NCBI GenBank assembly: GCA_016186495.1
Contig: JACPLO010000002.1
Span: forward strand, 6,857-70,856
Direction of reading: 5' to 3'
DNA length: 64,000 nucleotides
From: Candidatus Niyogibacteria bacterium
Lineage (GTDB): Bacteria; Patescibacteriota; Minisyncoccia; JACROR01
Numbering within the stretch: the stretch's first letter is position 1; the number at the start of each line of letters is the position of its first letter. Positions 7,493-50,602 of the stretch are shown here, piece after piece. Below the pieces are notes generated by a model. That model was given only the letters and a program-made list of their open reading frames with translations, did not search any database and was not told where the DNA came from. The translations under genes were made by a program, and so were the position numbers.

Positions 7493-7570
7493 CCCCGTTA
7501 GAAATCTTCATAAATAAGGTTTCAAGCGGGGAAATGATTATGCAAAACAAAAAACAAATTTCTAACGGAG
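7493..7570. mobile_element. Family A palindromic element, 78 bp, flanked by TGAA
   Basis: TGAA ccccgttagaaat ... atttctaacggag TGAA. Confidence 0.85.
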
Positions 7571-7995
7571 TGAATATAAACATAAAAAAAGCTTTTCTCC
7601 AGATTTTTATCGGCGCGATAATTATCGGCGGATTGTTTTTTGTCGGCTTATCGCCGCGAGGCCAGAAATTTTCTTCAAATCCGGATAGCGTTAAGAACGG
7701 AGAAAAAAAATATTTTTTAACGCTTAATTACGGCAACGGAAAAATAAGAAAATTCAGCAGCGAAATGGCGGAGGAAAAGACCAGGGCGTGGAATCTGCTC
7801 CAGCTAGCCTCGGCCCAATCGGCGGTGTCAGTGGAAATTGAAGATGGATTTCTTCCCCGTTCCATTGATGGATTTAAAAACACCGATCAAAACAAATGGG
7901 TTTTATTCGTGAACGGAGCAAGGCAAACAAACGGCCCTTTTGAGGTGTTTGTCAAAAAGGGAGATTTGGTGGAGTTTAAGTATGAAAAACAATAA
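7534..7995 (+). CDS. DUF4430-like membrane-anchored protein (start may be GTG 7570)
   Basis: TM then SIDGFKN...WVLFVNG...VKKGDLVEFKY; first residues are encoded by the element. Confidence 0.65.
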   Translation: MIMQNKKQISNGVNINIKKAFLQIFIGAIIIGGLFFVGLSPRGQKFSSNPDSVKNGEKKYFLTLNYGNGKIRKFSSEMAEEKTRAWNLLQLASAQSAVSVEIEDGFLPRSIDGFKNTDQNKWVLFVNGARQTNGPFEVFVKKGDLVEFKYEKQ

Positions 7996-8626
7996 AATAA
8001 ATTTTTTAAGGAGATTTACCCCATTAAATAGTTGCAAAGCAAATTTAACGGGGTTTACGGTTGTTGAAGTGTTGATTACCATGGGAGTTTTTGCGTTAGT
8101 TAGTTCAATGGTTTTGGCGAATTATCCCAAATTTTCCGAGCGGCTGACTCTGGAACAAACCGCTCAAAAAATCGCTTTATCTTTCCGGGAGGCAAAAATC
8201 CTCTCTTTAACGGTCGGAGAATCTGAAATTGGAACGCGAATTTTTCCCGGTTACGGCGTGCATTTTGACGCCGGTGAAAGCGGAAATAATAAAAGATATT
8301 TGATTTTTTCCGATCTTAACGCCGATAAAAAATATGCGGAGCCGGACGACGGAGAAAAAGATATTTTTGGAATCCAAAGCTCCGCTTTTATTTCAGGAGC
8401 TTGTTTCGGGGAAGAAGACGCCGGCAGTTTAAGCGAATGCCAAAGTTATAATCAAACGAAAATTTTAGATATAGTTTTTACTAGGCCAAAACCCAGCATT
8501 GATTTTTATGACGGCGAAAGAAGCCAGTGGCGAGGTGAGCAGAATGTCGGCATTTTTATCGTTAATCCCGAAGGCGATATTAAAAAAATAATTATCTGGA
8601 AAACCGGGCAGATAATGGTTGAATGA
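7982..8626 (+). CDS. Minor pilin (FimT/GspH-like)
   Basis: G|FTVVE prepilin motif, GYGVHF; start ATG 7982. Confidence 0.8.
   Translation: MKNNKINFLRRFTPLNSCKANLTGFTVVEVLITMGVFALVSSMVLANYPKFSERLTLEQTAQKIALSFREAKILSLTVGESEIGTRIFPGYGVHFDAGESGNNKRYLIFSDLNADKKYAEPDDGEKDIFGIQSSAFISGACFGEEDAGSLSECQSYNQTKILDIVFTRPKPSIDFYDGERSQWRGEQNVGIFIVNPEGDIKKIIIWKTGQIMVE
8019..8053. mobile_element. Family A element, 35 bp, flanked by TTTA, in frame in pilin leader
   Basis: TTTA ccccattaaat agttgcaaagcaa atttaacgggg TTTA; 39 nt net. Confidence 0.85.
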
Positions 8627-8640
8627 GATTTTATAATTAA

Positions 8641-8688
8641 TTCAAAAGTCAAAATGCAAAATTCAAAATTTCAATTCAAAATTCAAAA
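8641..8688. repeat. Degenerate heptamer tandem repeat (TTCAAAA)n
   Basis: ttcaaaa gtcaaaa tgcaaaa ttcaaaa tttcaa ttcaaaa ttcaaaa. Confidence 0.75.
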
Positions 8689-8710
8689 GTTTTATTTTTA
8701 ATTTTCAAAT

Positions 8711-9229
8711 ATGGCTTATCCAAAATCCGGCAAAGGTTTCAGCTTATTAGAGACGCTTGTGGCTTTGGCGATTTTAAATGCCGCGATTTTAGGGCCAATC
8801 AGTCTGGCTTATGTCAGCATCCGTTCAGCCAGTTTGTCTCATAACATCACGATTGCCGCTTTTTTAGCCGAGGAAGGAGTGGAATTGGCGCGCAGTCAGC
8901 GCGAAAAAAATATTTACAGCGGCAATGATTGGCTTAATAGCCTTGCCGGTTGCGCGGTTGGCAGTCCTTGCCGAATCGCGACTGCCGCGGACGGCGAAAT
9001 CAGCGTTGTTTCTTGCGGCGGATCATGCGCGCCCCTTAATTATGATTCAGATATCGGTCTCTACTGGTATGAGAGCGGAAATGCTTCAATTTTTACCAGA
9101 AGTTTTACGGTTGAGGAAATAAAAGAAAACAAAGAAGCAAAAGTGACGATGACGGTCAGTTGGAAAGAACGTTTTTTAAGCGGCAATCAAAATATTCAGT
9201 TAGAAAGCCATCTTTCCAATTGGCATTAG
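8711..9229 (+). CDS. Minor pilin (PilV-like)
   Basis: G|FSLLETLVAL, AAFLAEEGVELAR. Confidence 0.8.
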   Translation: MAYPKSGKGFSLLETLVALAILNAAILGPISLAYVSIRSASLSHNITIAAFLAEEGVELARSQREKNIYSGNDWLNSLAGCAVGSPCRIATAADGEISVVSCGGSCAPLNYDSDIGLYWYESGNASIFTRSFTVEEIKENKEAKVTMTVSWKERFLSGNQNIQLESHLSNWH

Positions 9230-9235
9230 AAATTT

Positions 9236-9892
9236 ATGGCTGAAGATTTTAAATTTAAAAAATTAAGGCGCGGGTCGCGGTTTCTAACGGGGTTTACCCC
9301 AGTTAAATCTTTCGCTTCGCGAAATTTAACGGGGTTTACCCCGTTAAATAGTTGCGAAGCAAATTTAACGGGGTTTACTCTGCTGGAGATGATTGTGTCT
9401 TTGGGAGTTTTTTCCGCGGCGATTTTGATTATTTTAGGGGCTATTTTGTCCATTAATGACGCTCAAAAGAAAATGATTAATATTCAGGCCGTTGAAGATA
9501 ATTTGCGTTTCGCTTTGGACGCAATGTCCAGAGAGATTCGGACCGGATCTGTCTATAATTGCGAAGGAGGAGGTTCGGCGTCCGATTGTCCGGCCGGATC
9601 GCCAATTTTCGCTTTTGATTCCATCAGCGGGGGAAGGATTATTTATCGTTGGAACAGCGTTAATAAAAGCATTGAAGAATCGGAAGACAATGGCTCAACT
9701 TATTATCCGATAACCGGCAACGATCTGAAAATAGAAAAATTAACTTTTTATGTTTTTGGAACAAGAACGATTGATTTTAAACAGCCGCGAGTGACAATGA
9801 TTATAAAAGCATTTGCCGGAGAAGAAAGAGTTAAAACTCGCTCGGAATTCAATATTCAAACCACGGTTACGCAAAGAGAATTAGATTCATAA
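9236..9892 (+). CDS. Minor pilin (PilW/PulJ-like) with repeat-expanded leader
   Basis: LTGFT occurs three times; true motif G|FTLLE; MSREIRTG; QTTVTQR C-terminus. Confidence 0.8.
   Translation: MAEDFKFKKLRRGSRFLTGFTPVKSFASRNLTGFTPLNSCEANLTGFTLLEMIVSLGVFSAAILIILGAILSINDAQKKMINIQAVEDNLRFALDAMSREIRTGSVYNCEGGGSASDCPAGSPIFAFDSISGGRIIYRWNSVNKSIEESEDNGSTYYPITGNDLKIEKLTFYVFGTRTIDFKQPRVTMIIKAFAGEERVKTRSEFNIQTTVTQRELDS
9281..9377. mobile_element. Tandem array of family A elements: right arm 9281-9292, unit 9297-9334 (38 bp), unit 9339-9373 (35 bp), separated by TTTA
   Basis: tttctaacgggg TTTA ccccagttaaat..atttaacgggg TTTA ccccgttaaat..atttaacgggg TTTA. Confidence 0.9.
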
Positions 9893-9897
9893 TTTTT

Positions 9898-10353
9898 ATG
9901 TTAAAAGGAAAAAACAAAGGAATCGCGCTTTTATTTTCAATTTTAATGCTAAGCATGGTTTTTACCGCCAGTTTGGCGATTTTTCAGATTGTTTTTACCG
10001 AGTTGAAACTTTCCGAAGGCGTGCGCGATTCCCAGCTTGCTTATTATGCCGCGGATTCGGCCGTGGAATGCGCGCTTTATGTTGATTTAGAGAGTGAAGA
10101 ATTCGGCCAGTCGGGAAAACCGAAAGTGCAGGATGATTGTTCGGGCGTTGATTCTAATGATATTCAAAAATTTGAAAATAATTGGTCAAACGGCGCTATT
10201 TTTACGGTGAATTACAGTAATGGTTCTTGCGCCGATGTGACGGTGGATAAAACCGGCGTGGGAGGATACGGAACATTCATCACCGTTTTAGGATTTAATA
10301 CCTGTGGAAACGCGGCAAGAAAAGTCAACCGCAGTTTGGAAGTGAAATACTAA
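9898..10353 (+). CDS. Minor pilin (PilX-like)
   Basis: KG|IALLFS without E5, AYYAADSAVECALY. Confidence 0.8.
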   Translation: MLKGKNKGIALLFSILMLSMVFTASLAIFQIVFTELKLSEGVRDSQLAYYAADSAVECALYVDLESEEFGQSGKPKVQDDCSGVDSNDIQKFENNWSNGAIFTVNYSNGSCADVTVDKTGVGGYGTFITVLGFNTCGNAARKVNRSLEVKY

Positions 10354-10359
10354 TTTTAA

Positions 10360-12443
<2,084 letters not shown>

Positions 12444-12444
<1 letters not shown>

Positions 12445-12646
12445 ACGCTTATTGTAAAATTTATTTTCTTATGACAGTGCTCCAAGCCTTGAAAATTATA
12501 GTCGTTTTGTTTCGGAAAAATTACGCGGTACCCCGTTCCTCCTTCGCTTCGCTCAGGATTTTCCGACCGCTATTTTTCCTCGTAAAACTTCTTAATTTTC
12601 AAAGTCTTTCCGCAAGTCAACAAAAACGAATTTTACAATAAGTGTT
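12444..12646. repeat. Family C long palindromic element (MITE-like or structured RNA)
   Basis: 18-bp terminal IR aacgcttattgtaaaatt / aattttacaataagtgtt; nested inner IRs ttgaaaatta/taattttcaa and cggaaaa/ttttccg. Confidence 0.75.
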
Positions 12647-12656
12647 ATATTGTAAT

Positions 12657-12944
12657 ATGGACATCAAAAAATTATCCCAATTGGCGCGGATAAAATTAAA
12701 TAAAAAAGAACAGGAATCTTTCGGTAAAGATTTAGAATCTGTTTTGGGTTACATCGGAAAATTAAAAGAAGCAAAAATAGAAAATGTTCCAGAATTAACT
12801 CATATTTTAGCCGCGAAAAACGTTTTTCGCCTTGACGAGGCGCCGGTTGAGTCGTTCGGAAATTCCGCGGAATTGCTGGAAGCAGCGCCGGAAAAAAAGA
12901 AAGGGTTTGTGAAAGTTAAGAAAGTTTTTAATGGCCAAGATTAA
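12657..12944 (+). CDS. gatC: Asp/Glu-tRNA amidotransferase subunit C
   Basis: MDIKKLSQLARI...FVKVKKVF; overlaps gatA start. Confidence 0.9.
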   Translation: MDIKKLSQLARIKLNKKEQESFGKDLESVLGYIGKLKEAKIENVPELTHILAAKNVFRLDEAPVESFGNSAELLEAAPEKKKGFVKVKKVFNGQD

Positions 12945-14370: not shown

Positions 14371-14371
14371 G

Positions 14372-14400
14372 AAAAGAAATTTAGGAGTATTTTCGCAATT
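14372..14400. repeat. Orphan right arm of family B element
   Basis: aaaagaaatttaggagtattttcgcaatt versus aaaagcaatttaggagtattttgtaatt at 54831-54858. Confidence 0.7.
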
Positions 14401-14426
14401 GATAGTAATTGATAACATATTAAATT

Positions 14427-14945
14427 ATGGATTTAATTGAAATTTTAAGAAATTTTTTTCCATTTTCTTCAGAATCTTTTATCGCAGGATTCAAGATTTT
14501 TTCTTTTGCCGCTTCCTTTATTTTTATTGCCGTAATTTTTTACAGTTTAACGAAGATTTATAAGATTTTTTCCAAAAAACATTTGGCTGATTTTTTGGAT
14601 GTCTGGAGCGAATATCCGGCGGAGGCGAGAAATTCCCGCTGGCAGGAAGTAAAGAAAAGATTGAAATCGGAAAATGCCTCGGATTGGAAATTTGCTGTTC
14701 TGGAAGCAGACAGTATTTTAGACGACGTGATGAAGAGAATCGGCTATCCCGGAGCTAATTTGGGCGAACGATTGATTGGCGTTGAGCCGAGCGATTTTGA
14801 TTCTTTGAGCGAAGTTTGGGAGGCGCATAAAGTAAGGAATCGCCTTGCTCATGAAGCCGCTGATTTTAAATTTTCCAAAGAAAGAGCCGAAGAAGTTATC
14901 GCGCTTTACGAAAAAGGCCTCAAAGAACTGGAATATATTTCTTGA
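14427..14945 (+). CDS. Conserved hypothetical membrane-anchored protein
   Basis: N-terminal TM; AVLEADSILD, LGERL, WEAHKVRNRLAHE (RNxxxH motif). Confidence 0.7.
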   Translation: MDLIEILRNFFPFSSESFIAGFKIFSFAASFIFIAVIFYSLTKIYKIFSKKHLADFLDVWSEYPAEARNSRWQEVKKRLKSENASDWKFAVLEADSILDDVMKRIGYPGANLGERLIGVEPSDFDSLSEVWEAHKVRNRLAHEAADFKFSKERAEEVIALYEKGLKELEYIS

Positions 14946-14958
14946 ATAAAAAATAAAA

Positions 14959-16233: not shown

Positions 16234-16251
16234 TTATATTAGATTAGAAGG

Positions 16252-16326
16252 CGGACCCGACCGGATTTGAACCGGCGATCTTCCCCGTGACAGGGGGACG
16301 TGTTAACCGGGCTACACCACGGGTCC
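16252..16326 (-). tRNA. tRNA-Asp(GTC)
   Basis: Minus strand cloverleaf GGACCCG...CCCC CT GTC AC GGGG...GGTTCAAATCC...CGGGTCCG; CCA not encoded. Confidence 0.93.
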
Positions 16327-16397
16327 TTTAATGATATAAATTATACATAAAATCATTAAAAATTGAAATAAGCATCAAGTGATGTATAATGAATTTT

Positions 16398-16468: not shown

Positions 16469-16469
16469 C

Positions 16470-17435: not shown

Positions 17436-17436
17436 A

Positions 17437-17485
17437 CCCCGTTAGAAATCGCGAACGCAATGTTCGCGTTCTATTTCTAACGGGG
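17437..17485. mobile_element. Family A element, 49 bp, flanked by TAAA
   Basis: TAAA ccccgttagaaat cgcgaac gcaat gttcgcg ttct atttctaacgggg TAAA. Confidence 0.92.
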
Positions 17486-17501
17486 TAAAACAAACAATAT
17501 T

Positions 17502-18476: not shown

Positions 18477-18481
18477 TATAC

Positions 18482-25264: not shown

Positions 25265-26707
25265 ATGTTTTTTAGAAAATTTCAAACTTTTGTTTTAATT
25301 TTTATTTTTATAACGGGCGCTTTTTTAAGCGTCCGTTCCGCGTTTTCTCAAAGCCAAACCGTTGACCCCGTTAGAGGTAAGATTCCGGAGGAATCTGCCG
25401 GTTTGCCGTTAGCAAATCGGACCTCTAACGGGGTTGATCCGGCCGCGATTTTGGAACAACGGGCTAAACTGCTGGAAGAAGAAAAGGAAGTGGAAGAACA
25501 GATTGGCGGATTGATGGTTATTATTCAAAATAAACAAGGGGAAACCGCCAGTTTGGAGCGCGATATCGCCATTATTAACGCCGAGATTAAAAAAGCAAAA
25601 CTGGCCATTAAAGCCAGAACTCTGACGATTGATAATCTTAATTCATCAATCGGAGAAAAATCTAAATTTATTGTTAAACTTTTAGACAAACAAGAGCGCG
25701 AAAAAGAATCTTTAGCCGAGCTTTTGCGGCAATTGAATGAATTTGGAGACACCACTTTAGTGGAGATTATTTTGGGTTATGAAAATCTTTCCGATTTTTT
25801 CGTGAATATGGATTCTTTGGATTTTCTTCAAAAATTCATTCAGGATTCTTTTGACGAAATTAAAATAACAAAAGAGAATACTGAAGAAGAGAAGTCTATT
25901 CTGGAAGAAAAAAAGAAAGAAGAATCAGAACTCCGTTATTTGCAGGAGCTTGAGAAAAAAAGAACTGAAGAAAGAGAAAAAGAAAAGAAAAAGATTTTAG
26001 AAATTACGCGCGGCGAAGAAAATGAATACCAAAAGCTTTTGGCCAGTCGGAAGAAAGATATTGCTCAAATCAGAAATCAACTTTTTATTTTGCGTGGTTC
26101 GGACGCCATTCCTTTTGAAAAAGCCATTGAATACGCCAATATCTCATTTAAGGCAACAGGCGTGCGCCCAGCTTTTCTTTTGGGAATAATTGCCGAAGAA
26201 TCCGAATTGGGCGCTAATTTAGGGTCCGGAAATTGGAAAACTGACATGTACGATTGTTATCGCCGAATCGGCTACAATAAGTCGGCGGAAAAACAAAAAA
26301 CCGCTTTTTTAGCGATTATTTCAGAATTATTTATTGACAGTCCTGATTCAAGGCCGGTTTCCAAAGCGCCGTATTACGGCTGCGGCGGAGCCATGGGGCC
26401 GGCGCAGTTTATGCCCGCTACTTGGTGGGATCCGGTTGGCAATACGGGATATAAAAAATTGATCGCTCAATATACCGGCCATAATCCTCCGGACCCGTGG
26501 AGTCCGGAAGACGCTTTTATGGCCGCGGCGCTTTTGCTTAAAGACAACGGCGCGGCGGCCGGAGGATTTACCGCGGAACGCCGGGCAGCTTTAAGATATT
26601 TAGCCGGCGGCAATTGGAATAAGCCGGCTTACGCTTTTTACGGCGACGACGTGATGGCTTTGGCTAAAAAATATCAAGATCAGATTGATATTTTAACGGA
26701 ATCTTAA
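25265..26707 (+). CDS. Secreted coiled-coil lytic transglycosylase (SLT-like)
   Basis: Signal peptide, long coiled coil, EES catalytic Glu, [13 protein letters not shown]; start ATG 25265. Confidence 0.82.
25366..25433. mobile_element. Family A element, 68 bp, flanked by TTGA, in frame
   Basis: TTGA ccccgttagaggt ... acctctaacgggg TTGA; 72 nt net; two inner hairpins. Confidence 0.92.
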
Positions 26708-28735: not shown

Positions 28736-28858
28736 TCCCGTTAGAGATTAAAGACTTTATTTTTTAACGGAATTTAAAAATATCTTTAATAATGATAATT
28801 AGAAATTATAAGAATAATTTACGGAAATGATTAAAATCATTTCCTATCTCTAACGGGA
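28736..28858. mobile_element. Family A element, 123-bp subfamily, flanked by TGAA, at tsf start
   Basis: TGAA tcccgttagagat ... atctctaacggga TGAA. Confidence 0.93.
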
Positions 28859-29453: not shown

Positions 29454-29876
29454 ATGTTTTTTTTCTTAATTTTAATTATTGTTTCTTTTTTTGGAATTTT
29501 AACGACTATTTTCAGGCATTGGCCGCGCGTCCGTTCTTTGCCGCCGGAAGAGATTTCTTCGGTTTTAGCGGGGAGCCGTTCATTTTTGGACGGATTTATT
29601 TTTGGTTTTCTTATTCCGTCTTTCCGGCGCGTTCAGAGCAGTTGCGTGCCGATATTTTACGTTACTTCGGAAAAAACCGTCAGGCGGTCGCGCCTTTTAA
29701 TCCTTAAAATAGAGAGCCGCCTTCAAAAAATAACCGACCATTTGAAAGGCAGGCGGATTTTGAACGTCCAAAACAAAAATAATGGCCGCAATTATGAATA
29801 CTGGCAGGAGATAAACGAACATCAAAACGGTTTAAAAGAGGAAATAAAAGAAGGAGAAAAACCTAAGCCGAGGTAG
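29454..29876 (+). CDS. Hypothetical membrane-anchored protein
   Basis: N-terminal TM; stop codon falls inside the decayed tRNA 5' half. Confidence 0.65.
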   Translation: MFFFLILIIVSFFGILTTIFRHWPRVRSLPPEEISSVLAGSRSFLDGFIFGFLIPSFRRVQSSCVPIFYVTSEKTVRRSRLLILKIESRLQKITDHLKGRRILNVQNKNNGRNYEYWQEINEHQNGLKEEIKEGEKPKPR

Positions 29877-29904
29877 CTCAAAAGCAGAGCAATGGTTTTG
29901 CCCG

Positions 29905-30009
29905 CCCCGTTAGAAATGCCGACGTAGCTCAGTGGTAGAGCAACGGTTTTGTAAACCGTAGGTCGTGGGTTCAAATCCCTCCGTCGGCTCATCGGCATTT
30001 CTAACGGGG
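29905..30009. mobile_element. Family A element, 105 bp, carrying a tRNA gene
   Basis: 18-bp perfect IR ccccgttagaaatgccga / tcggcatttctaacgggg; right flank TAAA, left flank CCCG. Confidence 0.9.
29918..29989 (+). tRNA. tRNA-Thr(TGT), inside the element
   Basis: GCCGACG/CGTCGGC acceptor, GCTC/GAGC D-stem, ACGGT TTTGTAA ACCGT, GGTTCAAATCC; one T-stem mismatch. Confidence 0.9.
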
Positions 30010-30157
30010 TAAACAGGTTGGAGGTTCGAATCTTCTCCTCGACTCCAAGATTAGATTTTTTACAATCATAATTCATGCGGCTTGCTTATTTATCAATGGA
30101 GATTAAAAAATGTTAATATTATGTTATGAAAGTTGTTCTGCTAACGTTCAAGTCCTC

Positions 30158-32250: not shown

Positions 32251-32934
32251 ATGAAAAAATACATAATTTCAGCCATAATTTTAATTTTGGGCTTAAGCGC
32301 GTATTATTTTATTTATCAGCTAAAAATCGGAGATAATAATATGAAGGAAGCAAACGAAAATTCTAAGGAGGATTTGAATCCCGTTAAAAATAACGAGTTG
32401 AGCGATGTTGAGAATAGCGCCGCGAAACAGCGTAAAATTTCTAACGGGATGAATCCGCGCGCGACGCTGGAAACGAGCATGGGTAATATTACGATAGAAC
32501 TTTATCCTAAAGATGCGCCGAAAACCGTGGCTAATTTTATCGGTTTAGCTAAAAAAGGATATTATAACGGCGTTATTTTTCATCGGGTGGTAAGCGGTTT
32601 TGTCATTCAGGGAGGCGATCCGACCGGCACGGGCGCCGGCGGCAATTCCATTTACGGCGGCGATTTTGAAGACGAACTTGATTTAAATACGGAAAGTTAT
32701 CAGCGCGGATATTTAAAAGGCGCGGTCGCGATGGCTAATCGCGGGCCTGACACTAATTCCAGCCAATTTTTTATTATGCTTGAAGATAAATCTTTGCCTA
32801 AGCTTTACACTATTTTCGGCAAAGTGGCGGAAGGAGATGATGTCGTCCAAAATATCGGCCGGGTGAAAGTAGGCGCTAATGACAAGCCATTGGCGCCGGT
32901 TATCATAAATAAAATTATTGTTGAAGGAAATTAG
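32251..32934 (+). CDS. Cyclophilin-type peptidyl-prolyl isomerase with membrane anchor
   Basis: APKTVANF, FHRVVSGFVIQGGDP, NSSQFFI. Confidence 0.92.
   Translation: MKKYIISAIILILGLSAYYFIYQLKIGDNNMKEANENSKEDLNPVKNNELSDVENSAAKQRKISNGMNPRATLETSMGNITIELYPKDAPKTVANFIGLAKKGYYNGVIFHRVVSGFVIQGGDPTGTGAGGNSIYGGDFEDELDLNTESYQRGYLKGAVAMANRGPDTNSSQFFIMLEDKSLPKLYTIFGKVAEGDDVVQNIGRVKVGANDKPLAPVIINKIIVEGN
32379..32449. mobile_element. Family A element, 71 bp, flanked by TGAA, in frame
   Basis: TGAA tcccgttaaaaat ... atttctaacggga TGAA; 75 nt net. Confidence 0.88.
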
Positions 32935-32938
32935 TCTT

Positions 32939-32955
32939 ATTTCTAACGGGATTGA
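32939..32955. repeat. Orphan right arm of family A element
   Basis: atttctaacggga TTGA. Confidence 0.65.
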
Positions 32956-33717: not shown

Positions 33718-34992
33718 ATGACAACTTCTAACGGGGTAAAACAAAATATCGTTATTTTGGGAGCGGGGTTTGCCGGCGTGAGAGCGGCTTTGGATTTAGC
33801 CAGATACCTGCCTTCGGAAGCGAAAATTACCCTGATTGACCGGAATTCTTTCCATTCATACACGCCGGCTTATTACGAAGTGGCGGCCGCTTTTTTGCCG
33901 GAAAAAGAAGAGCTTTCCCGGGAACAATTTGAATTATTGGCTTCAACCGCCGCCATTCCTCTTAAAACTATTTTTGAAAAATATAAAAATGTGGAATTGG
34001 CAATCGGCGAAGTGGCGGATATTTTGCCTGAAAAAAATCAGATTGAGATAAAATCGGGCGGAAAATACCGCTATGATTGGCTGATCATCGCTTTGGGAAG
34101 CGAACAAGATTATTTCGGGTTATCGGAGATCAAAAAATATGTTTATACTTTAAAAAGCCTGGAAGGCGCGCTTAATTTGCGGAACGGCATTGATGAATTA
34201 TTTTGGCGCCGGGCTAAGCATGAAAAAATAAAAATAATAGTGGCGGGCGGCGGATTTTTGGGAAGCGAGATAGCGGCCGAACTTGCCGGTTATGTCAAAA
34301 AACTTAATCGCCAACATTCTCGGCCAAAAGAAAATTGCGAAATAAGCATTATTGAAGGAGGACAGAATGTTTTAGGAAACGCCAGCGAATGGGCGCGGAA
34401 AAAAGCGGCCGGCCGGTTGGAAAAATTGGGCGTAAAAATTTCAACAAACAGTTTAATCAGCAAAGTAACCGAAGAAAAATTGATTTTGAAAGACGGCCAA
34501 ACTGTTTCTTATGATATTTTAATTTGGACAGTCGGCGTTCGGGCTTGCGCGATTACCGGCCAACTGGTCGGCCAAGGGCAAGAATTAAAGGGCAAAGGAT
34601 GCCTGGCCGTTGACCGATATTTGCGCGTCATTCCCTATGAAAATATTTTTGCCGCCGGAGATATTGCTTACGCGTCCGATTACGAAATAAATACTTTTAT
34701 GCCGATGACCGCTCAAGTCGCTATTCTTCACGGCCAATATATCGCTTACACGATAAAAAGAATGATTCGCAAACGCCGCCCGTTCCCTTATTGGCCGCAC
34801 CAAAATAGATTTAGCATCGCGCTTGGCGGAAAATACGCGCTTTTTGACGGAAAGCGGTTTAAATTCTCCGGTTTTTTCGCCTGGCTTTTGAAACATTTGA
34901 CGACTTTAAAATATTTCGCGGGCATTCTTCCTTTTTATCGCGCTTTTTTTATCTGGCAACGGGGTTTTAAGATATATAAAGATAACGATTAA
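33718..34992 (+). CDS. Type II NADH dehydrogenase-like FAD oxidoreductase
   Basis: GAGFAG, GGGFLGSEIAAE, FAAGD, TAQVA. Confidence 0.82.
   Translation: MTTSNGVKQNIVILGAGFAGVRAALDLARYLPSEAKITLIDRNSFHSYTPAYYEVAAAFLPEKEELSREQFELLASTAAIPLKTIFEKYKNVELAIGEVADILPEKNQIEIKSGGKYRYDWLIIALGSEQDYFGLSEIKKYVYTLKSLEGALNLRNGIDELFWRRAKHEKIKIIVAGGGFLGSEIAAELAGYVKKLNRQHSRPKENCEISIIEGGQNVLGNASEWARKKAAGRLEKLGVKISTNSLISKVTEEKLILKDGQTVSYDILIWTVGVRACAITGQLVGQGQELKGKGCLAVDRYLRVIPYENIFAAGDIAYASDYEINTFMPMTAQVAILHGQYIAYTIKRMIRKRRPFPYWPHQNRFSIALGGKYALFDGKRFKFSGFFAWLLKHLTTLKYFAGILPFYRAFFIWQRGFKIYKDND
33723..33740. repeat. Orphan right arm of family A element in NDH-2 N-terminus
   Basis: aacttctaacgggg TAAA; same subterminal sequence as 37516-37535. 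Confidence 0.8.
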
Positions 34993-37088: not shown

Positions 37089-37433
37089 ATGGAACAAAAA
37101 ATAAATCCCGTTAAAAGTTTTATAGCAAAAAAAGTATTAACTAAAAAGAAAGCCGAAGGCGAATTTGTCGACAAAAGTATGGATAACGACAAGCTCGGCA
37201 GAACTTCTAACGGGATAAAAAAAATTTTAGAAACTGAAATCGCGCCGATGCTCGCGATGCATGGCGGAAGAGTGGAATTTGTCAGTTTTGAAGAGGGGAC
37301 GGTAAAAATTCGGCTTAAAGGCGCTTGCCATGGCTGCGCGCTTTCCGAATTAACCTTGAAAGAAGGCGTGGAAAGAATTCTTAAAGAAAAAATCCGCAAA
37401 ATAAAAAGCGTGGAAAATGTTGAACCCCGTTAG
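37089..37433 (+). CDS. NifU C-terminal (NfuA-like) protein with 38-aa element-derived insertion
   Basis: PMLAMHGG, GACHGC; removing the insert gives MEQKIKKILETEIAP. Confidence 0.85.
   Translation: MEQKINPVKSFIAKKVLTKKKAEGEFVDKSMDNDKLGRTSNGIKKILETEIAPMLAMHGGRVEFVSFEEGTVKIRLKGACHGCALSELTLKEGVERILKEKIRKIKSVENVEPR
37106..37215. mobile_element. Family A element, 110 bp, flanked by TAAA, in frame
   Basis: TAAA tcccgttaaaagtt ... aacttctaacggga TAAA; 114 nt net. Confidence 0.9.
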
Positions 37434-37535
37434 AAGTTCAACCATGCTTTATTATATTAAAATCAAAAGTAAGCAAAGTCGCCTAACGGCTCACTTTAAT
37501 GTAAATTTTTATTATTATGACAACTTCTAATGGGG
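37425..37535. mobile_element. Family A element, 111 bp, flanked by TGAA
   Basis: TGAA ccccgttagaagtt ... aacttctaatgggg TGAA. Confidence 0.88.
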
Positions 37536-40036: not shown

Positions 40037-40058
40037 TTTAATAAATTTATTATAGAGT

Positions 40059-42749: not shown

Positions 42750-42756
42750 TTAAGCG

Positions 42757-43458: not shown

Positions 43459-43466
43459 ATAATGAA

Positions 43467-43588
43467 TCCCGTTAGAGATTAAAACCTTTATTTTTTAACG
43501 GAATTTAAAAATAACATCAATGAAAATAATTAGAATTACAAGAATAATTCACGGAAATGATTTTAATCATTTCCTATCTCTAACGGGA
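43467..43588. mobile_element. Family A element, 122 bp (123-bp subfamily), flanked by TGAA, at scpB start
   Basis: TGAA tcccgttagagat ... atctctaacggga TGAA; interior similar to 28736-28858. Confidence 0.93.
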
Positions 43589-44217
43589 TGAATTTATCCA
43601 ACATTATAGAATCAATTTTGTTTATTTACGGCGAGCCGATGAAAATATCGCGGCTGGCTGAAATTTTAAACAAAAAAGAAAACGAAGTGGAAGAGGCTTT
43701 GGCGGTTTTGGAAAATAATTTAGCGGAACGGGGATTAAAATTAATTAAAAACAACGGCGAAGCAACGCTGGCCACTGTTTCCGAAGCTTCCGAATTTATC
43801 CAAGGGCTTTTAAAAGAAGAATTCAGCGGTAAATTAACCAAAGCGGCTTTAGAAACTTTGGCGATTGTCGCATATTCAGGCCCTTTGCCGCGCGCGGAAA
43901 TTGATTTTATCAGGGGAGTAAATTCTTCTTTCATTTTGCGGAATTTGCTGATCAGCGGGCTGGTGGAAAGGGAAATTAATCCTAAAGACCGGAGAACTTT
44001 TATTTATAAGCCGTCAATGGATTTTTTGCGGTTTTTAGGCCTTAGTAAATTAGAAGATTTGCCGGAATACGGCGAATTTCGGAAAAGTTTGGAAGATTTT
44101 TCGTCCCTCACGCTTAATTTAAACGTGAGGGGCGAAGAAGAAATAAATCCCGTTAGAAGCCGTGATCGCTTTATGAAACAGCCGCAATCTAATGAAAATC
44201 AAAATTCATCAGAATAA
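43588..44217 (+). CDS. scpB: Segregation/condensation protein B
   Basis: ALETLAIVAY, IRGVNS, FGL-type LGLSKLEDLP; tail extended by repeats. Confidence 0.92.
   Translation: MNLSNIIESILFIYGEPMKISRLAEILNKKENEVEEALAVLENNLAERGLKLIKNNGEATLATVSEASEFIQGLLKEEFSGKLTKAALETLAIVAYSGPLPRAEIDFIRGVNSSFILRNLLISGLVEREINPKDRRTFIYKPSMDFLRFLGLSKLEDLPEYGEFRKSLEDFSSLTLNLNVRGEEEINPVRSRDRFMKQPQSNENQNSSE
44100..44136. repeat. Palindrome inside scpB tail
   Basis: ttcgtccctcacg ... cgtgaggggcgaa, 13-bp arms with one G.T. Confidence 0.65.
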
Positions 44218-44264
44218 AATTAAATTTCTATCAGATCGCCGATCACAATCTGCTTCTAACGGGA
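44148..44264. mobile_element. Family A element, 117 bp, flanked by TAAA
   Basis: TAAA tcccgttagaagc ... gcttctaacggga TAAA; inner gtgatcg/cgatcac. Confidence 0.92.
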
Positions 44265-44279
44265 TAAATAATAAAGAAA

Positions 44280-45200
44280 ATGTTTAAAATTAAAGGTTTA
44301 ATTTCATTTCCGCTGATTTTCAGTTTTTTGTTTTTAGTTTTTATCTGGAATATTTCTTTGCCCGAAAATTTTCAGGAAGCGGCCGTGGCGGTTGACGGTT
44401 TTGCAAAATCAGGAACGGAATTTTCCGAGTTGATTGCTGAAACTAACATTGAAGGCCAGAGTTATCTTGTTTTTGATTTTTTCGGGAGAATTATTGCTTC
44501 CCGTAAAAGTGATTTACAGTGGCCGTTGGCCAGTTTAACAAAATTGATGACCGCTCTTTTAACCGAAGAAAATATCGGAAAAGAGGCGGTTATTTCCGTT
44601 TCCCGCCGGGCGATTTCAGCGGAAGGCGATGACGGTTTTTTAGCGGAAGAAATTTTCCGGCGCGATGATTTGCGCGACGCCATGCTGATCCATTCTTCCA
44701 ACGATGCCGCTTACGCGCTGGCCGAACATTTTGGCTGGGATGAATTTATAAAATTAATGAATCAAAAAGCGGCGTTTCTCGGCATGGCCCAAACATTTTT
44801 TTTCGATCCGGCCGGTCTTGATTTTTCCAAAACCAGCGCTGGCGCTTACGGTTCAGCCGGAGATTTGATGATTTTACTGGGATATTTAATGGAAAATCAT
44901 CCTCAAGTTTTAGAAGCAACGCGCTTGCCGTTTTTGAAAATTGAATCTTTGGAAGGAAATAAGCATCGTTTTACCAATACTAACCGGCTAATTTACGAAA
45001 TTCCGCAGTTTTTGGCCGGAAAGACCGGTTTTACCGACATTGCCGGCGGTAATTTGGCGGTGGTGGCGGATATCGGCATTAATCAGCCGGTGGGGATAAT
45101 TATTTTAGGGTCTTCGGAGAAAGGAAGATTTGAAGATGTGTTAAAATTATATCAGGCAACCAGAAAGTGGTTTCAAAATCATCCCTTACTCTTCAAATAA
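44280..45200 (+). CDS. D-alanyl-D-alanine carboxypeptidase (peptidase S11)
   Basis: ASLTKLMT, SSNDAA, GKTGFT. Confidence 0.9.
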   Translation: MFKIKGLISFPLIFSFLFLVFIWNISLPENFQEAAVAVDGFAKSGTEFSELIAETNIEGQSYLVFDFFGRIIASRKSDLQWPLASLTKLMTALLTEENIGKEAVISVSRRAISAEGDDGFLAEEIFRRDDLRDAMLIHSSNDAAYALAEHFGWDEFIKLMNQKAAFLGMAQTFFFDPAGLDFSKTSAGAYGSAGDLMILLGYLMENHPQVLEATRLPFLKIESLEGNKHRFTNTNRLIYEIPQFLAGKTGFTDIAGGNLAVVADIGINQPVGIIILGSSEKGRFEDVLKLYQATRKWFQNHPLLFK

Positions 45201-45214
45201 TTGAAGGGTGAGGG

Positions 45215-46288
45215 ATGATCTTAAATGTTCTGAAAATTTTCGGGCTTTCATCTTTAGCATTTTTTATCGGCATTTTTCTTACGCCGCTTTTAACGCATTA
45301 TCTTTATAAATACAAAATGTGGAAAAAGAAGAGTGGGAAAAAAATCGCGTTAGGAGGAGGAGAAACGACGATTTTTAATGAACTGCATAAAGAAAGAGAT
45401 ACGGGCACGCCGCGGATGGGCGGAATCATAATTTGGGCAAGTGTTTTACTGACCATTATTATATTTTGGTTGATTTTTCAGTTTTTTCCGTCTGAACTTA
45501 CGAAAAAACTTAATTTTTTAAGCCGAGAACAGACTTGGCTTTTATTGTTTACGCTCGTGTTCGCTTCCGTGGTCGGCTTGATTGAGGATTTTTTAATTGT
45601 TTTTGGCCGAGGGTATAAGAGAGATTCAGGCCTGGAATTAAAAACAAGAATTTTTATCGTGCTTTTGATCGGTTTGATCGGCGCCTGGTGGTTTTTTACA
45701 AAGCTTGAAGTGTCAAGCATTATGATCCCTTTTTTGGGGCAACTGGAGCTGGGCTGGTTTTTTATTCCGTTTTTTATGTTGGTGATGCTTGCTTTGTTTT
45801 CAGGGGGCGTTATTGACGGCTTGGATGGATTGTCCGGAGGCGTAATGGCGGCTATATTTTCATCTTACGCCGGCATTGCTTTTTTTCAGAATCAAATAGA
45901 CACCGCCGCGTTTTGCGCTGTTGTTGTCGGAGGAATCCTCGCTTTTTTATGGTTTAATATCCCCCCCGCCCGTTTTTATATGTCTGAAACCGGAATACTG
46001 GGGTTGACCACAACCTTGGCGGTTGTCGCTTTTTTGACCGGCCAGGTAATTATTTTGCCGATTATCGCTTTTCCGCTTTTTATAACAACTGCTTCTAATA
46101 TCATTCAGATTTTGTCTAAAAAATTTAGAAGCGGCAAAAAAGTATTTTTGGTGGCGCCTCTTCACCATCATTTTGAAGCCAAGGGCTGGCCGCCTTATAA
46201 AGTAACGATGCGTTTTTGGATTGTCAGCGTAGTCTTCGCGATTTTAGGAATAGTCGTCGCTTTAATCGGAAAAGTGCCTCCACGCTAA
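45215..46288 (+). CDS. mraY: Phospho-N-acetylmuramoyl-pentapeptide transferase
   Basis: GTPRMGG, DGLDGL, APLHHHFE. Confidence 0.93.
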   Translation: MILNVLKIFGLSSLAFFIGIFLTPLLTHYLYKYKMWKKKSGKKIALGGGETTIFNELHKERDTGTPRMGGIIIWASVLLTIIIFWLIFQFFPSELTKKLNFLSREQTWLLLFTLVFASVVGLIEDFLIVFGRGYKRDSGLELKTRIFIVLLIGLIGAWWFFTKLEVSSIMIPFLGQLELGWFFIPFFMLVMLALFSGGVIDGLDGLSGGVMAAIFSSYAGIAFFQNQIDTAAFCAVVVGGILAFLWFNIPPARFYMSETGILGLTTTLAVVAFLTGQVIILPIIAFPLFITTASNIIQILSKKFRSGKKVFLVAPLHHHFEAKGWPPYKVTMRFWIVSVVFAILGIVVALIGKVPPR

Positions 46289-46315
46289 TTAAGTCATTGT
46301 TCGCTAGTGCGGGAA

Positions 46316-47371
46316 TTATAACTCTATTTTAGAAAGCGCGCCGCCATCCAAAACATAGACGGTTTTTTGAGAAGGGCGGACGGCAAAAGTCGGATTTTTG
46401 CCTTTGTAAATCGGCTGCATATTGCGATTGCCGCGGCCGTCAATTTCTAAGGCAAAAATGCCGTTTTCCGCGGCAAAAATAATAACATCTTCTCTTAAAG
46501 GAAAGAAATCAATATTTTTGATGGGAGAACGGGTTTTGATAATCATTTCTTTTTCCGCCGACAAATAATAAGGAAGAGGGAGATTTTTTTCCAGCCATTC
46601 GGTCCAGATTTCATTGTCTTTTTCCAACCAGATTTTTAATTTTTTATGCTTGTCAAATCTGATAAATTGGCGCGCCTGATCCTCGCCTTCATTTTCGGTT
46701 AGAAGATATTCGGGAGCTGGCGCGGGAAAAGCGCGAACCGTTTTGTTTTCAAAATCAAATTCGGTTTTTAAAAAAGAACGATCGGAAAAAGAAAGCAAAG
46801 CCGTTTGATTTTCCGGCCAATAAACATCGCCTATTTTTTTAAAAGAAGAAAAGATTTTATTTATTGAGATTGAGGCGTTTGTCATAAATTCTTCGGAAGC
46901 CGGAAGATAAAAAACTATTTTTCTCATTTCGTTTTTTAATTCTTCCAGGATTAATATTTCATCAAAAGGTGAAGCAAAAACGGAGATAAAAGGTCCTCGC
47001 GCCAGAGTTTTTCCCTCCGGCGAACGGGGAATTAGGAAAGCGCGGGCTTCCGTTACCAATTGAGGATTTATTTTCAGATTTTTTTGCCAAGGCCAATAGT
47101 TTTCTTTAGCCACCAGAGCGGAATAAACATCGGGTTTTAGATTTTGGATGAAGACTCCGCCTTGCAAAAGATTTGTTTGTTTTTCCAGGTTGTTGTCAAT
47201 AAATATCTCTGAACTGGAAAGAGGAGAATAAATATAAATTCCTCCGGTTTTGGCTAAAGACCAATTATTCGCCAAGCGATAGCCGGCGGTATACAAAAGA
47301 ACAAGCGGCGTGATAATAAAAAAAACCGCGATTGAAAGAAAAAGTAATTTTCGCCGATATTTAAGAGTCAT
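46316..47371 (-). CDS. PEGA-like domain membrane-anchored protein
   Basis: TM, AGYR, TGGIYIYSP, KENYWPWQKNL, EIDGR. Confidence 0.7.
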   Translation of the reverse strand: MTLKYRRKLLFLSIAVFFIITPLVLLYTAGYRLANNWSLAKTGGIYIYSPLSSSEIFIDNNLEKQTNLLQGGVFIQNLKPDVYSALVAKENYWPWQKNLKINPQLVTEARAFLIPRSPEGKTLARGPFISVFASPFDEILILEELKNEMRKIVFYLPASEEFMTNASISINKIFSSFKKIGDVYWPENQTALLSFSDRSFLKTEFDFENKTVRAFPAPAPEYLLTENEGEDQARQFIRFDKHKKLKIWLEKDNEIWTEWLEKNLPLPYYLSAEKEMIIKTRSPIKNIDFFPLREDVIIFAAENGIFALEIDGRGNRNMQPIYKGKNPTFAVRPSQKTVYVLDGGALSKIEL

Positions 47372-47435
47372 TAATAATCATTATATCTTCTGCTTTTTCC
47401 TTGTAAAGCGCCGGAAAATAGGATAAAATTTCGGC

Positions 47436-48716
47436 GTGAGGCGATTGAACGAAGAAAAATTCATTATTAAAGGATCGGCTGGAAGGCTCAAAGGAATTAT
47501 TCCGGTCAGAGGTTCAAAAAATGCCTGTTTGAAGGCGATGGCTGCCGCGGTTTTAACCGATAAGCCGATAACAATTAAGAATGTTCCTTTAATTGAAGAT
47601 GTTTTTAGAATGCGGGAGCTTTTGGAATTTTTAGGCGCCGAAGTTAAAGAAACAGGCCGGCGTTCTTTTTTAATTTCAGCGGAAAATATAAAAAAATCCT
47701 GTCTTGATTTTGAGATCGCTAAATCTTTTAGGGCGTCTGTGGTGCTGACCGGACCTCTTTTAGCCCGTTTGGGGACTGTTTCTTTTCCTTTCCCCGGCGG
47801 CTGCGTGATCGGCAAGCGGCCGATCGATATGTTTCTTAATGGTTTTGAAAAAATGGGAGCCAAGGTTTTTACAAATGGAAAAGGAAATAATTTTACGATT
47901 AAAGCCAAGGTATTGAAAGGCGCGGAAATTTTTTTTCGGATAGTCAGCGTAACCGGCACGGAGACTTTAATGATGGCGGCAACATTGGCGCGAGGGCGCA
48001 CTGTTTTGCGCAATGCCGCTCAAGAACCGGAGATCATAAATTTAGCTGATTTTTTAAACAGTTGCGGAGCGCGAATTAAAGGCGCCGGCACCAGTACCAT
48101 CGTCATCAACGGCGTAAAAAAGCTCGGCCCCGGAGTTTTTAATACGCCGCCTGATCGGATTGAAACCGGAAGTTTTTTGATTTTAGGAGCGCTTTCAGGG
48201 GATAAATTACGCGTGATTCATTGCAATCCTCTTCATATTTTAAGTCTGATTGAATATTTGGAATCAATGGGCGTTAGTTTAAAAAAAGGAAAGGATTGGG
48301 TGGAAATAAGCCGGCCGAAATTTTTCAAGCCAGTGAACATAAAGACCAGCGAGTATCCCGGTTTTCCTACCGATCTTCAAGCGCCATTTTCCGTTTTATT
48401 GACCCAAGCTAAGGGAACAAGTTCGTTGTTTGAAACGGTTTATGACGGCCGTTTGAATTATATCAATGATTTAGTTAGAATGGGCGCGAATATTATTTTA
48501 TGCGACGCGCATCGGGCGATATTCCACGGGAAAACTTATTTAAAGGGCAGGGAAGTGGAAGCCCCGGATCTTCGGGCCGGCCTGACTTTTATTTTAGCCG
48601 CTTTGATTGCCAAAGGAAAATCTATCATTCATAATGTTTATAATATAGATCGGGGATATGAAAAAATAGAAGAAAGGCTGTGGGACGCGGGGGCGGCCAT
48701 CAAAAGAATTATTTGA
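47436..48716 (+). CDS. murA: UDP-N-acetylglucosamine 1-carboxyvinyltransferase
   Basis: GSKNA, PGGCVIGKRP, PGFPTDLQ, DLRAG, DRGYE. Confidence 0.95.
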   Translation: MRRLNEEKFIIKGSAGRLKGIIPVRGSKNACLKAMAAAVLTDKPITIKNVPLIEDVFRMRELLEFLGAEVKETGRRSFLISAENIKKSCLDFEIAKSFRASVVLTGPLLARLGTVSFPFPGGCVIGKRPIDMFLNGFEKMGAKVFTNGKGNNFTIKAKVLKGAEIFFRIVSVTGTETLMMAATLARGRTVLRNAAQEPEIINLADFLNSCGARIKGAGTSTIVINGVKKLGPGVFNTPPDRIETGSFLILGALSGDKLRVIHCNPLHILSLIEYLESMGVSLKKGKDWVEISRPKFFKPVNIKTSEYPGFPTDLQAPFSVLLTQAKGTSSLFETVYDGRLNYINDLVRMGANIILCDAHRAIFHGKTYLKGREVEAPDLRAGLTFILAALIAKGKSIIHNVYNIDRGYEKIEERLWDAGAAIKRII

Positions 48717-48748
48717 CTTTTACTTTTTGATTTCTGAATTTTTTTATT

Positions 48749-49762
48749 ATGTCTATTTTTGTTAAAAAATTAGGGATAGATTTGGGTACGGCCAATACTT
48801 TGGTTTTCGTGCCCGGCCGGGGAGTGATTTTGAATGAACCGTCAGTGGTGGCGGTTTCGGTTCCGGATAATAAAGTAATCGCCGTGGGGAATGAAGCGCG
48901 CGTGATGATCGGCAAAACGCCGGACGACATCGTGGCTTATCGTCCGATGAAAGACGGAGCAATCGCCGATTATCGGGTAACCGAAGCCATGCTTCGTTAT
49001 TTTATCGGCAAAGCTCTTCCCAAGTGGAATATTTTTAGGCCGGAAGTGATGGTTTCCGTGCCGGCCGGCGTTAATTCCACTCAGACAAGATCGGTGATGG
49101 AAGCGGCGATGAAAGCGGGAGCGCGCGCCGCTTACGTTATTAAAGAGCCGATTTTAGCGGCGATCGGCGCCAACATTCCCATTCATGAGCCGACCGGACA
49201 TATGATTGTTGATATCGGAGGAGGAACTACGGATGTGGCGGTTATTTCTTTAGGCGGAATTGTGGTTTCTACTTCCGTAAAAATGGCAGGCAATAAAATT
49301 GACCAAGCAATCATTGATTATGCCAAGAAAGCGTTTAATTTGGCGATTGGCGACCGAACCGCCGAAGACATTAAAATTACGATTGGTTCGGCTTTAGCTT
49401 TAGGCGAAGATTTGGCTTATCAAGTCAAAGGGAGAGATTTTCTGACCGGCCTGCCCCGTTCCACGGAAATAAAAACTTTTGAAATCGTAAAGGCGATTGA
49501 ATCTGAACTTCAAGAAATTATCAAAGCGATTAAGGCGGTTCTTCAGGATACTCCGCCGGAACTTGCTTCGGATATCATTGATAAAGGAATTACGATGAGC
49601 GGCGGTTCTTCGCTTTTAAGGAATTTAGACGAATTAATCCATCGGGCGACCGGCATTAAAGCGTATTTAGCCGAAGATCCTCTGCTTTGCGTGGCCCGCG
49701 GCACGGGCATTGCTTTGGAACATTTGGATATTTATAAAAAAAGCGTCATTACTAAAAAATAA
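48749..49762 (+). CDS. mreB: Rod shape-determining protein MreB paralogue
   Basis: IDLGTANT, EPSVVA, DIGGGTTDV. Confidence 0.9.
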   Translation: MSIFVKKLGIDLGTANTLVFVPGRGVILNEPSVVAVSVPDNKVIAVGNEARVMIGKTPDDIVAYRPMKDGAIADYRVTEAMLRYFIGKALPKWNIFRPEVMVSVPAGVNSTQTRSVMEAAMKAGARAAYVIKEPILAAIGANIPIHEPTGHMIVDIGGGTTDVAVISLGGIVVSTSVKMAGNKIDQAIIDYAKKAFNLAIGDRTAEDIKITIGSALALGEDLAYQVKGRDFLTGLPRSTEIKTFEIVKAIESELQEIIKAIKAVLQDTPPELASDIIDKGITMSGGSSLLRNLDELIHRATGIKAYLAEDPLLCVARGTGIALEHLDIYKKSVITKK

Positions 49763-49779
49763 TAATTGCCGCAAAAATA

Positions 49780-50478
49780 GTGCCTTACCCATTTTTATTG
49801 CAATCCCATATTAAATCCGGCCGATTGGCTCACGGATATTTGTTGATCGGTTCAATTGAACAGGCAAGAAAAATCGCGGCGGAAGCGGCCGGCCGGCTGC
49901 TTGAAAATTTCAATCAAAACCATCCTGATTTTTTTGAATTTTGCGGCGAATCTTTCGGCATCAGCGAGGCGAGAGAGTTAATCAGAAAAACTTATCTGAA
50001 AGCATTCGGCGCCGGCAACAAAAAAATATTTTTTATCGGCGCGGAAACTATAACTTTGGAAGCTGCCAGCGCGCTTTTAAAAACAATGGAAGATTTTTCA
50101 GACGCGGCGCATTTTTTTCTTTCCGTTCTTTCGGAGGAAAATTTGCCGGTTACTCTTTGTTCGCGATTGGTTAAAATCCGGATGGCTTTTGAGCCGGAAG
50201 CGGGCTTCACGGACTATTGGCGGAATTTTGAAAAGAAACCTCATATTGATAAAATGGAATATCTTAAAAAAATAGCGGATAAAAAAGATGAAAAAGAACA
50301 AAAAAAAATTTTGGACGCCCGCGAAATTTATTTTGAAGATATTTTAAAAAATAGCGGCAATGACGAACAGCGAAAAAAATCTTTGGAAAATTTGGAAAAT
50401 CTGGTTTTCGCGAGAGAATTAATGGACGGTCCGGCCGCTTATCCTAAATCTATTTTAGAATATCTGATATTAACATGA
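49780..50478 (+). CDS. Divergent DNA polymerase III delta-prime-like protein
   Basis: LAHGYLL, HPD, AASALLKTME, TLCSR. Confidence 0.7.
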   Translation: MPYPFLLQSHIKSGRLAHGYLLIGSIEQARKIAAEAAGRLLENFNQNHPDFFEFCGESFGISEARELIRKTYLKAFGAGNKKIFFIGAETITLEAASALLKTMEDFSDAAHFFLSVLSEENLPVTLCSRLVKIRMAFEPEAGFTDYWRNFEKKPHIDKMEYLKKIADKKDEKEQKKILDAREIYFEDILKNSGNDEQRKKSLENLENLVFARELMDGPAAYPKSILEYLILT

Positions 50479-50479
50479 A

Positions 50480-50602
50480 TCCCGTTAGAGATTAAAACCT
50501 TTATTTTTTAACGGAATTTAAAAATATCATCAATGAAGATAATTGGAAATTACAAGAATAATTTACGGAAATGATTTTAATCATTTCCTATCTCTAACAG
50601 GA
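50480..50602. mobile_element. Family A element, 123-bp subfamily, flanked by TGAA
   Basis: TGAA tcccgttagagat ... atctctaacagga TGAA. Confidence 0.92.

Follow-up and report, generated by a model that had tools for sequence, protein, structure and literature searches.

The GIY-YIG nuclease SsnA, a protein of 94 amino acids (aa), makes sequence-specific cuts in single-stranded DNA within a few bases of a particular hairpin, at its foot, whatever the loop, which is dispensable; incoming transforming DNA is among its substrates (PMC11893778). The paper describing it also proposes an insertion sequence (IS)-like unit, NTS-ssnA-NTS; mobility by a lone GIY-YIG nuclease is put forward there as a proposal only, and for a clade other than the one considered here (PMC11893778). 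SegB of phage T4 is a free-standing GIY-YIG homing endonuclease that spreads tRNA genes and leaves 2-nt 3′ overhangs (PMC2330249). Here, we analyzed a family of small palindromic elements in 64,000 nt (the window, in which all positions below are counted; contig JACPLO010000002.1, positions 6,857 to 70,856) of a 654-kb genome of a Candidatus Niyogibacteria bacterium (G000), a member of the Patescibacteria within the candidate phyla radiation (CPR). The main genome for comparison, G001, is from the same genus and is syntenic with the window at ~84% identity.

We consider these elements one family, defined by a 13-bp stem and occurring in three forms: a ~280-bp parent that carries a nuclease gene (form A), short derivatives (form B), and copies whose loop is a whole tRNA gene (form C). 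The reading in which the nuclease moves the stem and the loop guides form C has, in our estimate, a probability of about 0.6. Of its parts, the role of the GIY-YIG enzyme as mover appears likely and, with that enzyme granted, guidance of landing by the loop appears a shade likelier still. The sequences themselves show the shared stem of all three forms, insertion into empty sites, rebuilt start codons, and, for forms A and B, a 4-5-bp TNAA duplication; form C sits in tRNA genes for the same amino acid, with CYYG at its left foot, TRAA at its right, and 2-7 target bases lost.

Fourteen arm pairs were observed in the window, where 100 third-order Markov simulations of it gave a mean of 0.07 and a maximum of 1. 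They correspond to the 14 copies of 35-123 bp that an earlier note, made from the sequence alone, had listed at the same starts, and 13 have an exact 4-bp direct repeat, the exception being 29905 (Table 1). As that note had counted, the six copies inside coding sequences (CDSs) add 39, 42, 39, 72, 75, and 114 nt with open frames, and the seven at gene boundaries add 82, 53, 127, 115, 126, 121, and 127 nt. Across G000, exact arms numbered 121 (64 + 57), against 10 (6 + 4) for a control pattern used as comparison motif in exact-arm and arm-pair counts, and the arm 10-mers were the most over-represented in the genome. The suggested scan of other genomes recovered at least 19 exact arms in 15 of 40 relatives, with the control never exceeding 17, and the record titles of related loci were nearly all Patescibacteria. 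Three matches lay in records labelled Bdellovibrionales, Desulfobacterales, and Gammaproteobacteria (L073, L084, and L086), reflecting either mis-binning or a wider spread.

Pairing of arms throughout G000 gave 62 elements, two or three of which are tandem or lone arms paired in error. Of the 62, 38 are flanked by an exact 4-bp repeat that on one strand nearly always reads TNAA, and in 27 of these 38 the element's last base matched the base preceding the duplication (p = 0.001, A/G table), so that the duplication is often 5 bp; the element's first base was probably copied across the stem. The arm covariation reported earlier is real, in that pairing at stem positions 1, 9, and 11-13 greatly exceeds the cross-copy expectation and drops to chance at position 14. 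Moreover, the pattern was common to the G000 copies (58), the tRNA-carrying copies (114 of the matches listed), and the parents (26): copies differ from one another at positions 1 and 11-13 yet are each paired there, position 9 also covaries in the first two sets, and pairing is near chance at position 14 in all three, with 26 of 26 parents paired at all 13 positions. This fixed stem length of 13 bp indicates that the three forms belong together. The interiors had been called mostly unrelated, which does not hold for all: 28736, 43467, and 50480 are one subfamily that matches the parent ends beyond the core, and relatives of the interiors of 37425, 37106, and 9339 were found elsewhere in G000. 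About ten G000 copies of 78-80 bp retain a constant length, with interiors diverged almost beyond alignment.

The mobilizer was expected, in the earlier note, to be a transposase, tyrosine recombinase, or HUH nuclease enclosed in long copies; instead, the candidate is a single-domain GIY-YIG nuclease. Specifically, the candidate parent has the same 13-bp arms and is filled by a gene for a nuclease of ~86 aa, as in G004 and G010, where 280-bp arm pairs are each filled by a single open reading frame (ORF) of 86-89 aa. Arm pairs 263-293 bp apart occurred in 44 of 401 genomes of the class, against 2 for the control pattern, and in 5 of 201 genomes of the phylum. Among 30 such elements examined, 26 contained a nuclease frame, two a broken frame, and two none; their flanks all differed, and they often lay on ATGAA start codons. 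The protein matched the Pfam GIY-YIG model at E-values of about 1e-16 to 1e-18 and nothing above cut-off in NCBIfam, and its confidently predicted structure came closest to UPF0213 and Slx1 but matched nothing at E ≤ 0.001. Invariant residues of the nuclease include Y5, Y16, R26, and E62 (numbered in P0002). Its final residues are encoded by the right arm, and most parents take their stop codon from the TGA in the foot. Among the best 120 of 3,513 homologues, the L[ST]LTG ending specified by the right arm is present in 104, and 53 begin with read-through of the left arm. In a tree of 88 columns with weak deep forks, the element nucleases grouped together (93/88); other CPR GIY-YIG proteins lay outside this branch, as did six NTS-adjacent proteins that stood in for Ssn (cd10448).

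Other nuclease-bearing elements were seen alongside this parent. A GIY-YIG mini-element of G000 (L234; C9:152711-152999) encodes 87 aa between different arms of 17 bp, and its right end seemingly provides the ATG of the next gene. Parents at L251 and L259 have G..C terminal bases, lie on tRNA-Pro 5′ ends, and have longer duplications, and many other small CPR GIY-YIG genes (L210-L238) abut tRNA genes and have palindromes of their own, which suggests several parallel nuclease-hairpin families in CPR. No nuclease relative was confirmed among 108 pattern matches in viral contigs. Two candidates were rejected: the circle-junction pattern in viral contigs, for which the 39 matches were unrelated hairpins, none with more than one full arm close by, and a Y1/HUH mobilizer, since none of ten Y1 loci had an arm pair around it.

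The likeness to the Ssn systems lies in a single-domain GIY-YIG protein of ~90 aa tied to a repeated hairpin (there, the SRM), and in feet, as the tRNA copies read TTCA-stem-CRRG on one strand, near the NTS feet GTCA and CYRG. However, the element nuclease falls outside the clade of the six stand-ins, which form a separate branch (100/99), SRM matches were present at none of 26 parent loci and three times in G000, and the gene here lies inside one stem, whereas the Ssn gene has a hairpin on each side. The duplication of the target, the landing on start codons, and the carriage of tRNAs seen here do not figure in the passages of the Ssn account considered, the main text of which contains neither "tRNA" nor "Patescibacteria" (PMC11893778).

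The tRNA cargo goes beyond the earlier note. In the copy at 29905, an intact tRNA-Thr is nested within a split one, and this cargo shares ~95% identity with the cargos of L167 and L172, which lie in different host halves; three tRNAs, and no other structured RNA, reached the Rfam gathering score in the window. Eight of the 48 called tRNAs of G000 lie directly between these arms, and a ninth element is a three-layer tRNA-Val(TAC) nest (C10:20450-20850). Two more G000 tRNAs are in nests with other or variant arms. At C11:63578-63678, a tRNA-Pro(GGG) lies in a split tRNA-Pro between unrelated AT-rich arms of 12 bp, a parallel family with the same habit, and at C11:80255-80362 a variant-arm tRNA-Leu(TAA) occupies the D-loop of a native tRNA-Leu(TAA), the gene being intact in G001.

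A scan of the genome collection for tRNA elements, unconditioned on flanks, returned at least 120 loci, and the counts that follow are of the matches listed. In 102 of these, from families of at least five members (nine small-family and three contig-end loci were left out), the flanks best matched the cargo's own amino-acid family in 88 cases, own cargo excluded, where permutation gave a mean of 20 and a maximum of 32. The left foot was CYYG in 74 of 111 and the right foot TRAA in 93 of 111, the two orientations were equally frequent (47 and 47, with 17 unassigned), and 2-7 target bases were lost in 45 of the 47 best-matched cases. Copies carrying tRNAs showed no target duplication; in G000, a tRNA was present in all seven CYYG-footed copies and in 0 of the 38 with a direct repeat. 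One Arg(TCT) cargo lineage was placed at three positions (D-loop, variable region, and T-loop), a lineage of Ala(CGC) cargo occurred in either orientation, and two Ala lineages were nested reciprocally, each being found as cargo within the other. Against the intact genes of G001, the split halves were native for Ala (0.87/0.84, versus 0.60/0.63 to the cargo) and Leu(TAA), and for Arg(TCG) on short stretches. Contrary to what had been supposed, cargo is not arbitrary, because tRNA cargo predicts the target gene and the other interiors fall into subfamilies. Judged by isotype at the sequence level, a cargo tRNA of the same amino acid would complement the disrupted tRNA gene.

In miniature, the tRNA copies resemble the tRNA-dependent lysogeny of actinobacteriophages as outlined in PMC10865867, but they have no integrase, the exact-match tRNA elements listed are ~90-140 bp without a protein gene, and a single stem here serves at least ten amino-acid families at several positions. 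SegB, so far as its account goes, homes between allelic phage regions and has no inverted-repeat ends or non-autonomous partners (PMC2330249), in contrast to the many unrelated sites seen here.

The earlier reading of the elements as mobile and non-autonomous, with the ends as their defining part, is supported: G001 lacks all 14 copies. The empty sites asked for in relatives exist at 25366, 37106, and 37425, each reduced to one 4-mer in G001 (at 25366, a single TTGA); at 17437 the upstream region is rearranged in G001, and absence is established only before the next gene. G001 has a 37-bp copy of its own with a TTGA repeat (L011:12215-12251) that was not found in the window. Local capture of neighboring DNA was rejected as the general source of cargo, as interiors at clean sites do not match the corresponding empty sites, and unrelated places harbor the same subfamilies; the exception is an inner copy of the C10 nest that duplicates its outer host, the innermost cargo repeating the outermost 5′ half together with upstream bases.

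Repeat-footed G000 copies kept the frame in 17 of 18 cases inside naive CDSs versus 14 of 32 elsewhere (p = 6e-4), which is best read as survivor bias. In 11 of 62 G000 copies, the element's final purine together with TG from the repeat restores a start codon (ATG or GTG); of the 8,333 TGAA words, only 153 coincide with ORF starts and 1,099 fall between genes. The element at 37425 parts a pair of overlapping genes, acting as stop for one and start for the other, and the copies at 8019, 9297, and 9339 re-create the G of GFT. Their hosts are, we presume, prepilin-like leaders, with 8019 just 5′ of the GFT motif; from the translations, which were the source of all host labels in the window, we take the host of 17437 to be dehydrogenase-like, that of 32379 cyclophilin-like, and that of 37106 NifU-like. 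The gene behind 50480 is a stump (50603-50697) and is intact in G001, with ~1 kb more sequence (L542). The proposed preservation of host genes is in part design, through rebuilt start codons and a replacement tRNA, is in part survivor bias, and is not universal, as the stump behind 50480 demonstrates.

Table 1. Elements, lone arms, and tRNA features of the window.
Feature	Position	Strand	Remarks
78-bp element	7493..7570		TGAA repeat; gene start; internal ATG; without counterpart in G001
35-bp element	8019..8053		TTTA repeat; in frame; not in G001-G003
Lone right arm	9279..9292		Heads a tandem array
38-bp element	9297..9334		TTTA repeat; in frame; left arm one base longer
35-bp element	9339..9373		Head-to-tail with 9297; not in G001, G003
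49-bp element	17437..17485		TAAA repeat; 3′ end of gene; not seen in G002/G003
68-bp element	25366..25433		TTGA repeat; in frame (+72); folding z = -8.1
123-bp element	28736..28858	+	Both extended parent ends; last A plus TG form ATG of next gene; not in G001
Decayed tRNA-Thr 5′ half (target)	29867..29900	+	
105-bp element	29905..30009	+	Feet CCCG / TAAA, no direct repeat; in anticodon loop of split tRNA-Thr
Intact cargo tRNA-Thr(TGT)	29918..29990	+	Sole tRNA of that anticodon in the assembly
Decayed tRNA-Thr 3′ half	30014..30047	+	
71-bp element	32379..32449		TGAA repeat; in frame (+75); not in G001
Lone right arm	32938..32951		3′ of stop codon
Right-end remnant of 111-bp subfamily	33718..33736 (arm 33723-33736)	+	Gives start codon of next gene; plain ATGAA start in G001
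110-bp element	37106..37215		TAAA repeat; in frame (+114)
111-bp element	37425..37535	+	TGAA repeat; overlap of two genes; three relatives elsewhere in G000
122-bp parent-ended element	43467..43588	+	On start codon
117-bp element	44148..44264		TAAA repeat; contains stop codon of upstream gene
123-bp parent-ended element	50480..50602	+	On start codon; the gene behind it reduced to a stump

Copies were also seen near rRNA genes: two at L407 lie apparently within a 23S rRNA gene (recognized by eye), and a lone left arm of G000 (C5:2871) adjoins an apparent 5S rRNA gene.

[quoted passage not shown] Target duplication with empty sites likewise marks the copies without tRNAs as MITE-like, and those with tRNAs fail in this respect; unlike MITEs, long copies (two size windows) encode a GIY-YIG protein and no known IS transposase, and the target of the tRNA copies follows their cargo. 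Rickettsia palindromic elements are also palindromic and include in-frame copies within genes. Hairpin ends, tetranucleotide feet, and action in trans recall REP/REPIN-RAYT, IS200/IS605, and IS91, and CTTG is also a target of IS91, but the present family has no linked HUH gene and does have a 4-5-bp duplication.

We propose that the nuclease would recognize the stem in single-stranded DNA, on the lagging strand or in incoming transforming DNA, much as SsnA does its hairpin, and would cut at the stem foot. Host repair or recombination may then join the stem-loop wherever pairing is possible, at a TNAA foot for forms A and B and at the tRNA loop for form C. One arm would be re-copied from the other, which would account for the covariation of the variable stem positions. 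After insertion of form C the cell would depend on the carried tRNA. G000 holds only forms B and C, where the enzyme may have acted in trans or been lost. In head-to-tail junctions of a right and a left arm, the commonest spacer is 6 nt long (15 of 33) and mostly reads RTNAAY; such junctions fit circles or re-insertion at an existing foot alike.

Several points weigh against this proposal. The parent was not found in G000 despite about 60 copies, and the only GIY-YIG gene there has different arms. The support of the element-nuclease branch is moderate, and a nuclease and a tRNA in one stem were seen at none of 114 loci of 355-385 bp (7 single stems). Across genomes, long arm pairs were sought in two size windows only, 263-293 bp and 355-385 bp, and the start-codon and frame counts come from naive ORF calls. 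Among the tRNA matches listed, 14 of 102 have flanks that best match another family, and for Thr (the window case), Gln, and Leu(CAG) the halves are no closer to the G001 tRNA than the cargo is and are ambiguous. Furthermore, GIY-YIG enzymes hydrolyze, and we know of no joining step for them.

The absence of the parent from G000 would be expected if the GIY-YIG gene were only the most successful cargo and a host or element enzyme (a Xer-type recombinase, or an HUH or DDE transposase) moved the stem, with head-to-tail junctions as recombination sites with a 6-bp core. The 6-nt spacer does resemble an 11-6-11 recombinase site, and mixed feet within one subfamily (TTTA/TGAA, TTCA/TAAA) resemble coupling sequences. 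Yet the nuclease's end and stop codon are built from arm and foot, the element nucleases are one clade, and no other enzyme gene was present in single stems of 263-293 bp (30 examined) or 355-385 bp (7 single stems among the 114 loci). Additionally, of 16 arm-rich genomes, 8 (G000 included) lack PF01797 (Y1_Tnp), which two genomes without arms do have, and arm pairs enclosing 0.4-6 kb in G000 amounted to two weak candidates, neither with real ends and neither convincing. We consider such an enzyme unlikely.

Slightly more doubtful still is a variant in which the nuclease moves the stem but the tRNA nests descend from a few chance or selected founders, spread as modules by homing or by homologous recombination via the tRNA halves, as with SegB. 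Nest junctions recur at a limited set of sites, cargo anticodons are often C-initial and often dispensable (Ala CGC 27 and Val CAC 15 of 111 matches listed), the window tRNA-Thr halves are ambiguous as noted above, and 2-nt losses fit the 2-nt 3′ overhangs described for SegB (PMC2330249). However, the Arg(TCT) lineage occupies three positions and the Ala(CGC) lineage both orientations, in halves that share 36-64% mean identity, the Ala and Leu(TAA) halves are native, and random landing predicts many tRNA copies outside tRNA genes, whereas most of those listed lie in cognate ones. That the inserts are intron-like sequences removed from RNA, leaving the outer tRNAs and genes intact, is very improbable: inserts fold into strong hairpins and some outer tRNA halves retain paired stems, but anticodon bases are lost at the junction, many halves are decayed, copies in CDSs keep the frame, which removal would not need, and Rfam found no intron.

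Movement of the stem by the nuclease, with the loop as guide for form C, thus remains our preferred reading, and the family of stem elements is apparently undescribed as mobile DNA. The earlier note had matched it to no named family, which agrees with Rfam, where only tRNAs were found, and with the literature searched, in which no description was encountered; most subscription papers lay outside that search, and supplements to the Ssn and MITE papers might list such repeats. The main text of a survey of prokaryotic MITEs (PMC11602168) mentions neither Patescibacteria, CPR, nor GIY. An IS family moved by a lone GIY-YIG nuclease is, to our knowledge, not established. More tentatively, and at somewhat less than even odds, the family may be a new class of transposon, ~280 bp long, in which an 86-aa GIY-YIG protein is the sole enzyme, the 13-bp stem licenses movement, and the single-stranded loop is a DNA guide that picks the target.

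With a parent, its derivatives, and empty sites in hand, a proposal of the Ssn type can be put to the test using short oligonucleotides and a protein of 86 aa, and, if the interpretation as a new class is true, the system would amount to a programmable tool for insertion, and a very small one. For CPR genomes, the family is a shaping force; both protein starts and pilin leaders are altered by it, which has consequences for annotation. If 100-bp elements do land in tRNA genes that match their cargo, both the targeting and the dependence of the host would be of a new kind; were the loop indeed the guide, any loop would steer its element into its homologue, and rival tRNA lineages would overwrite each other across CPR genomes.

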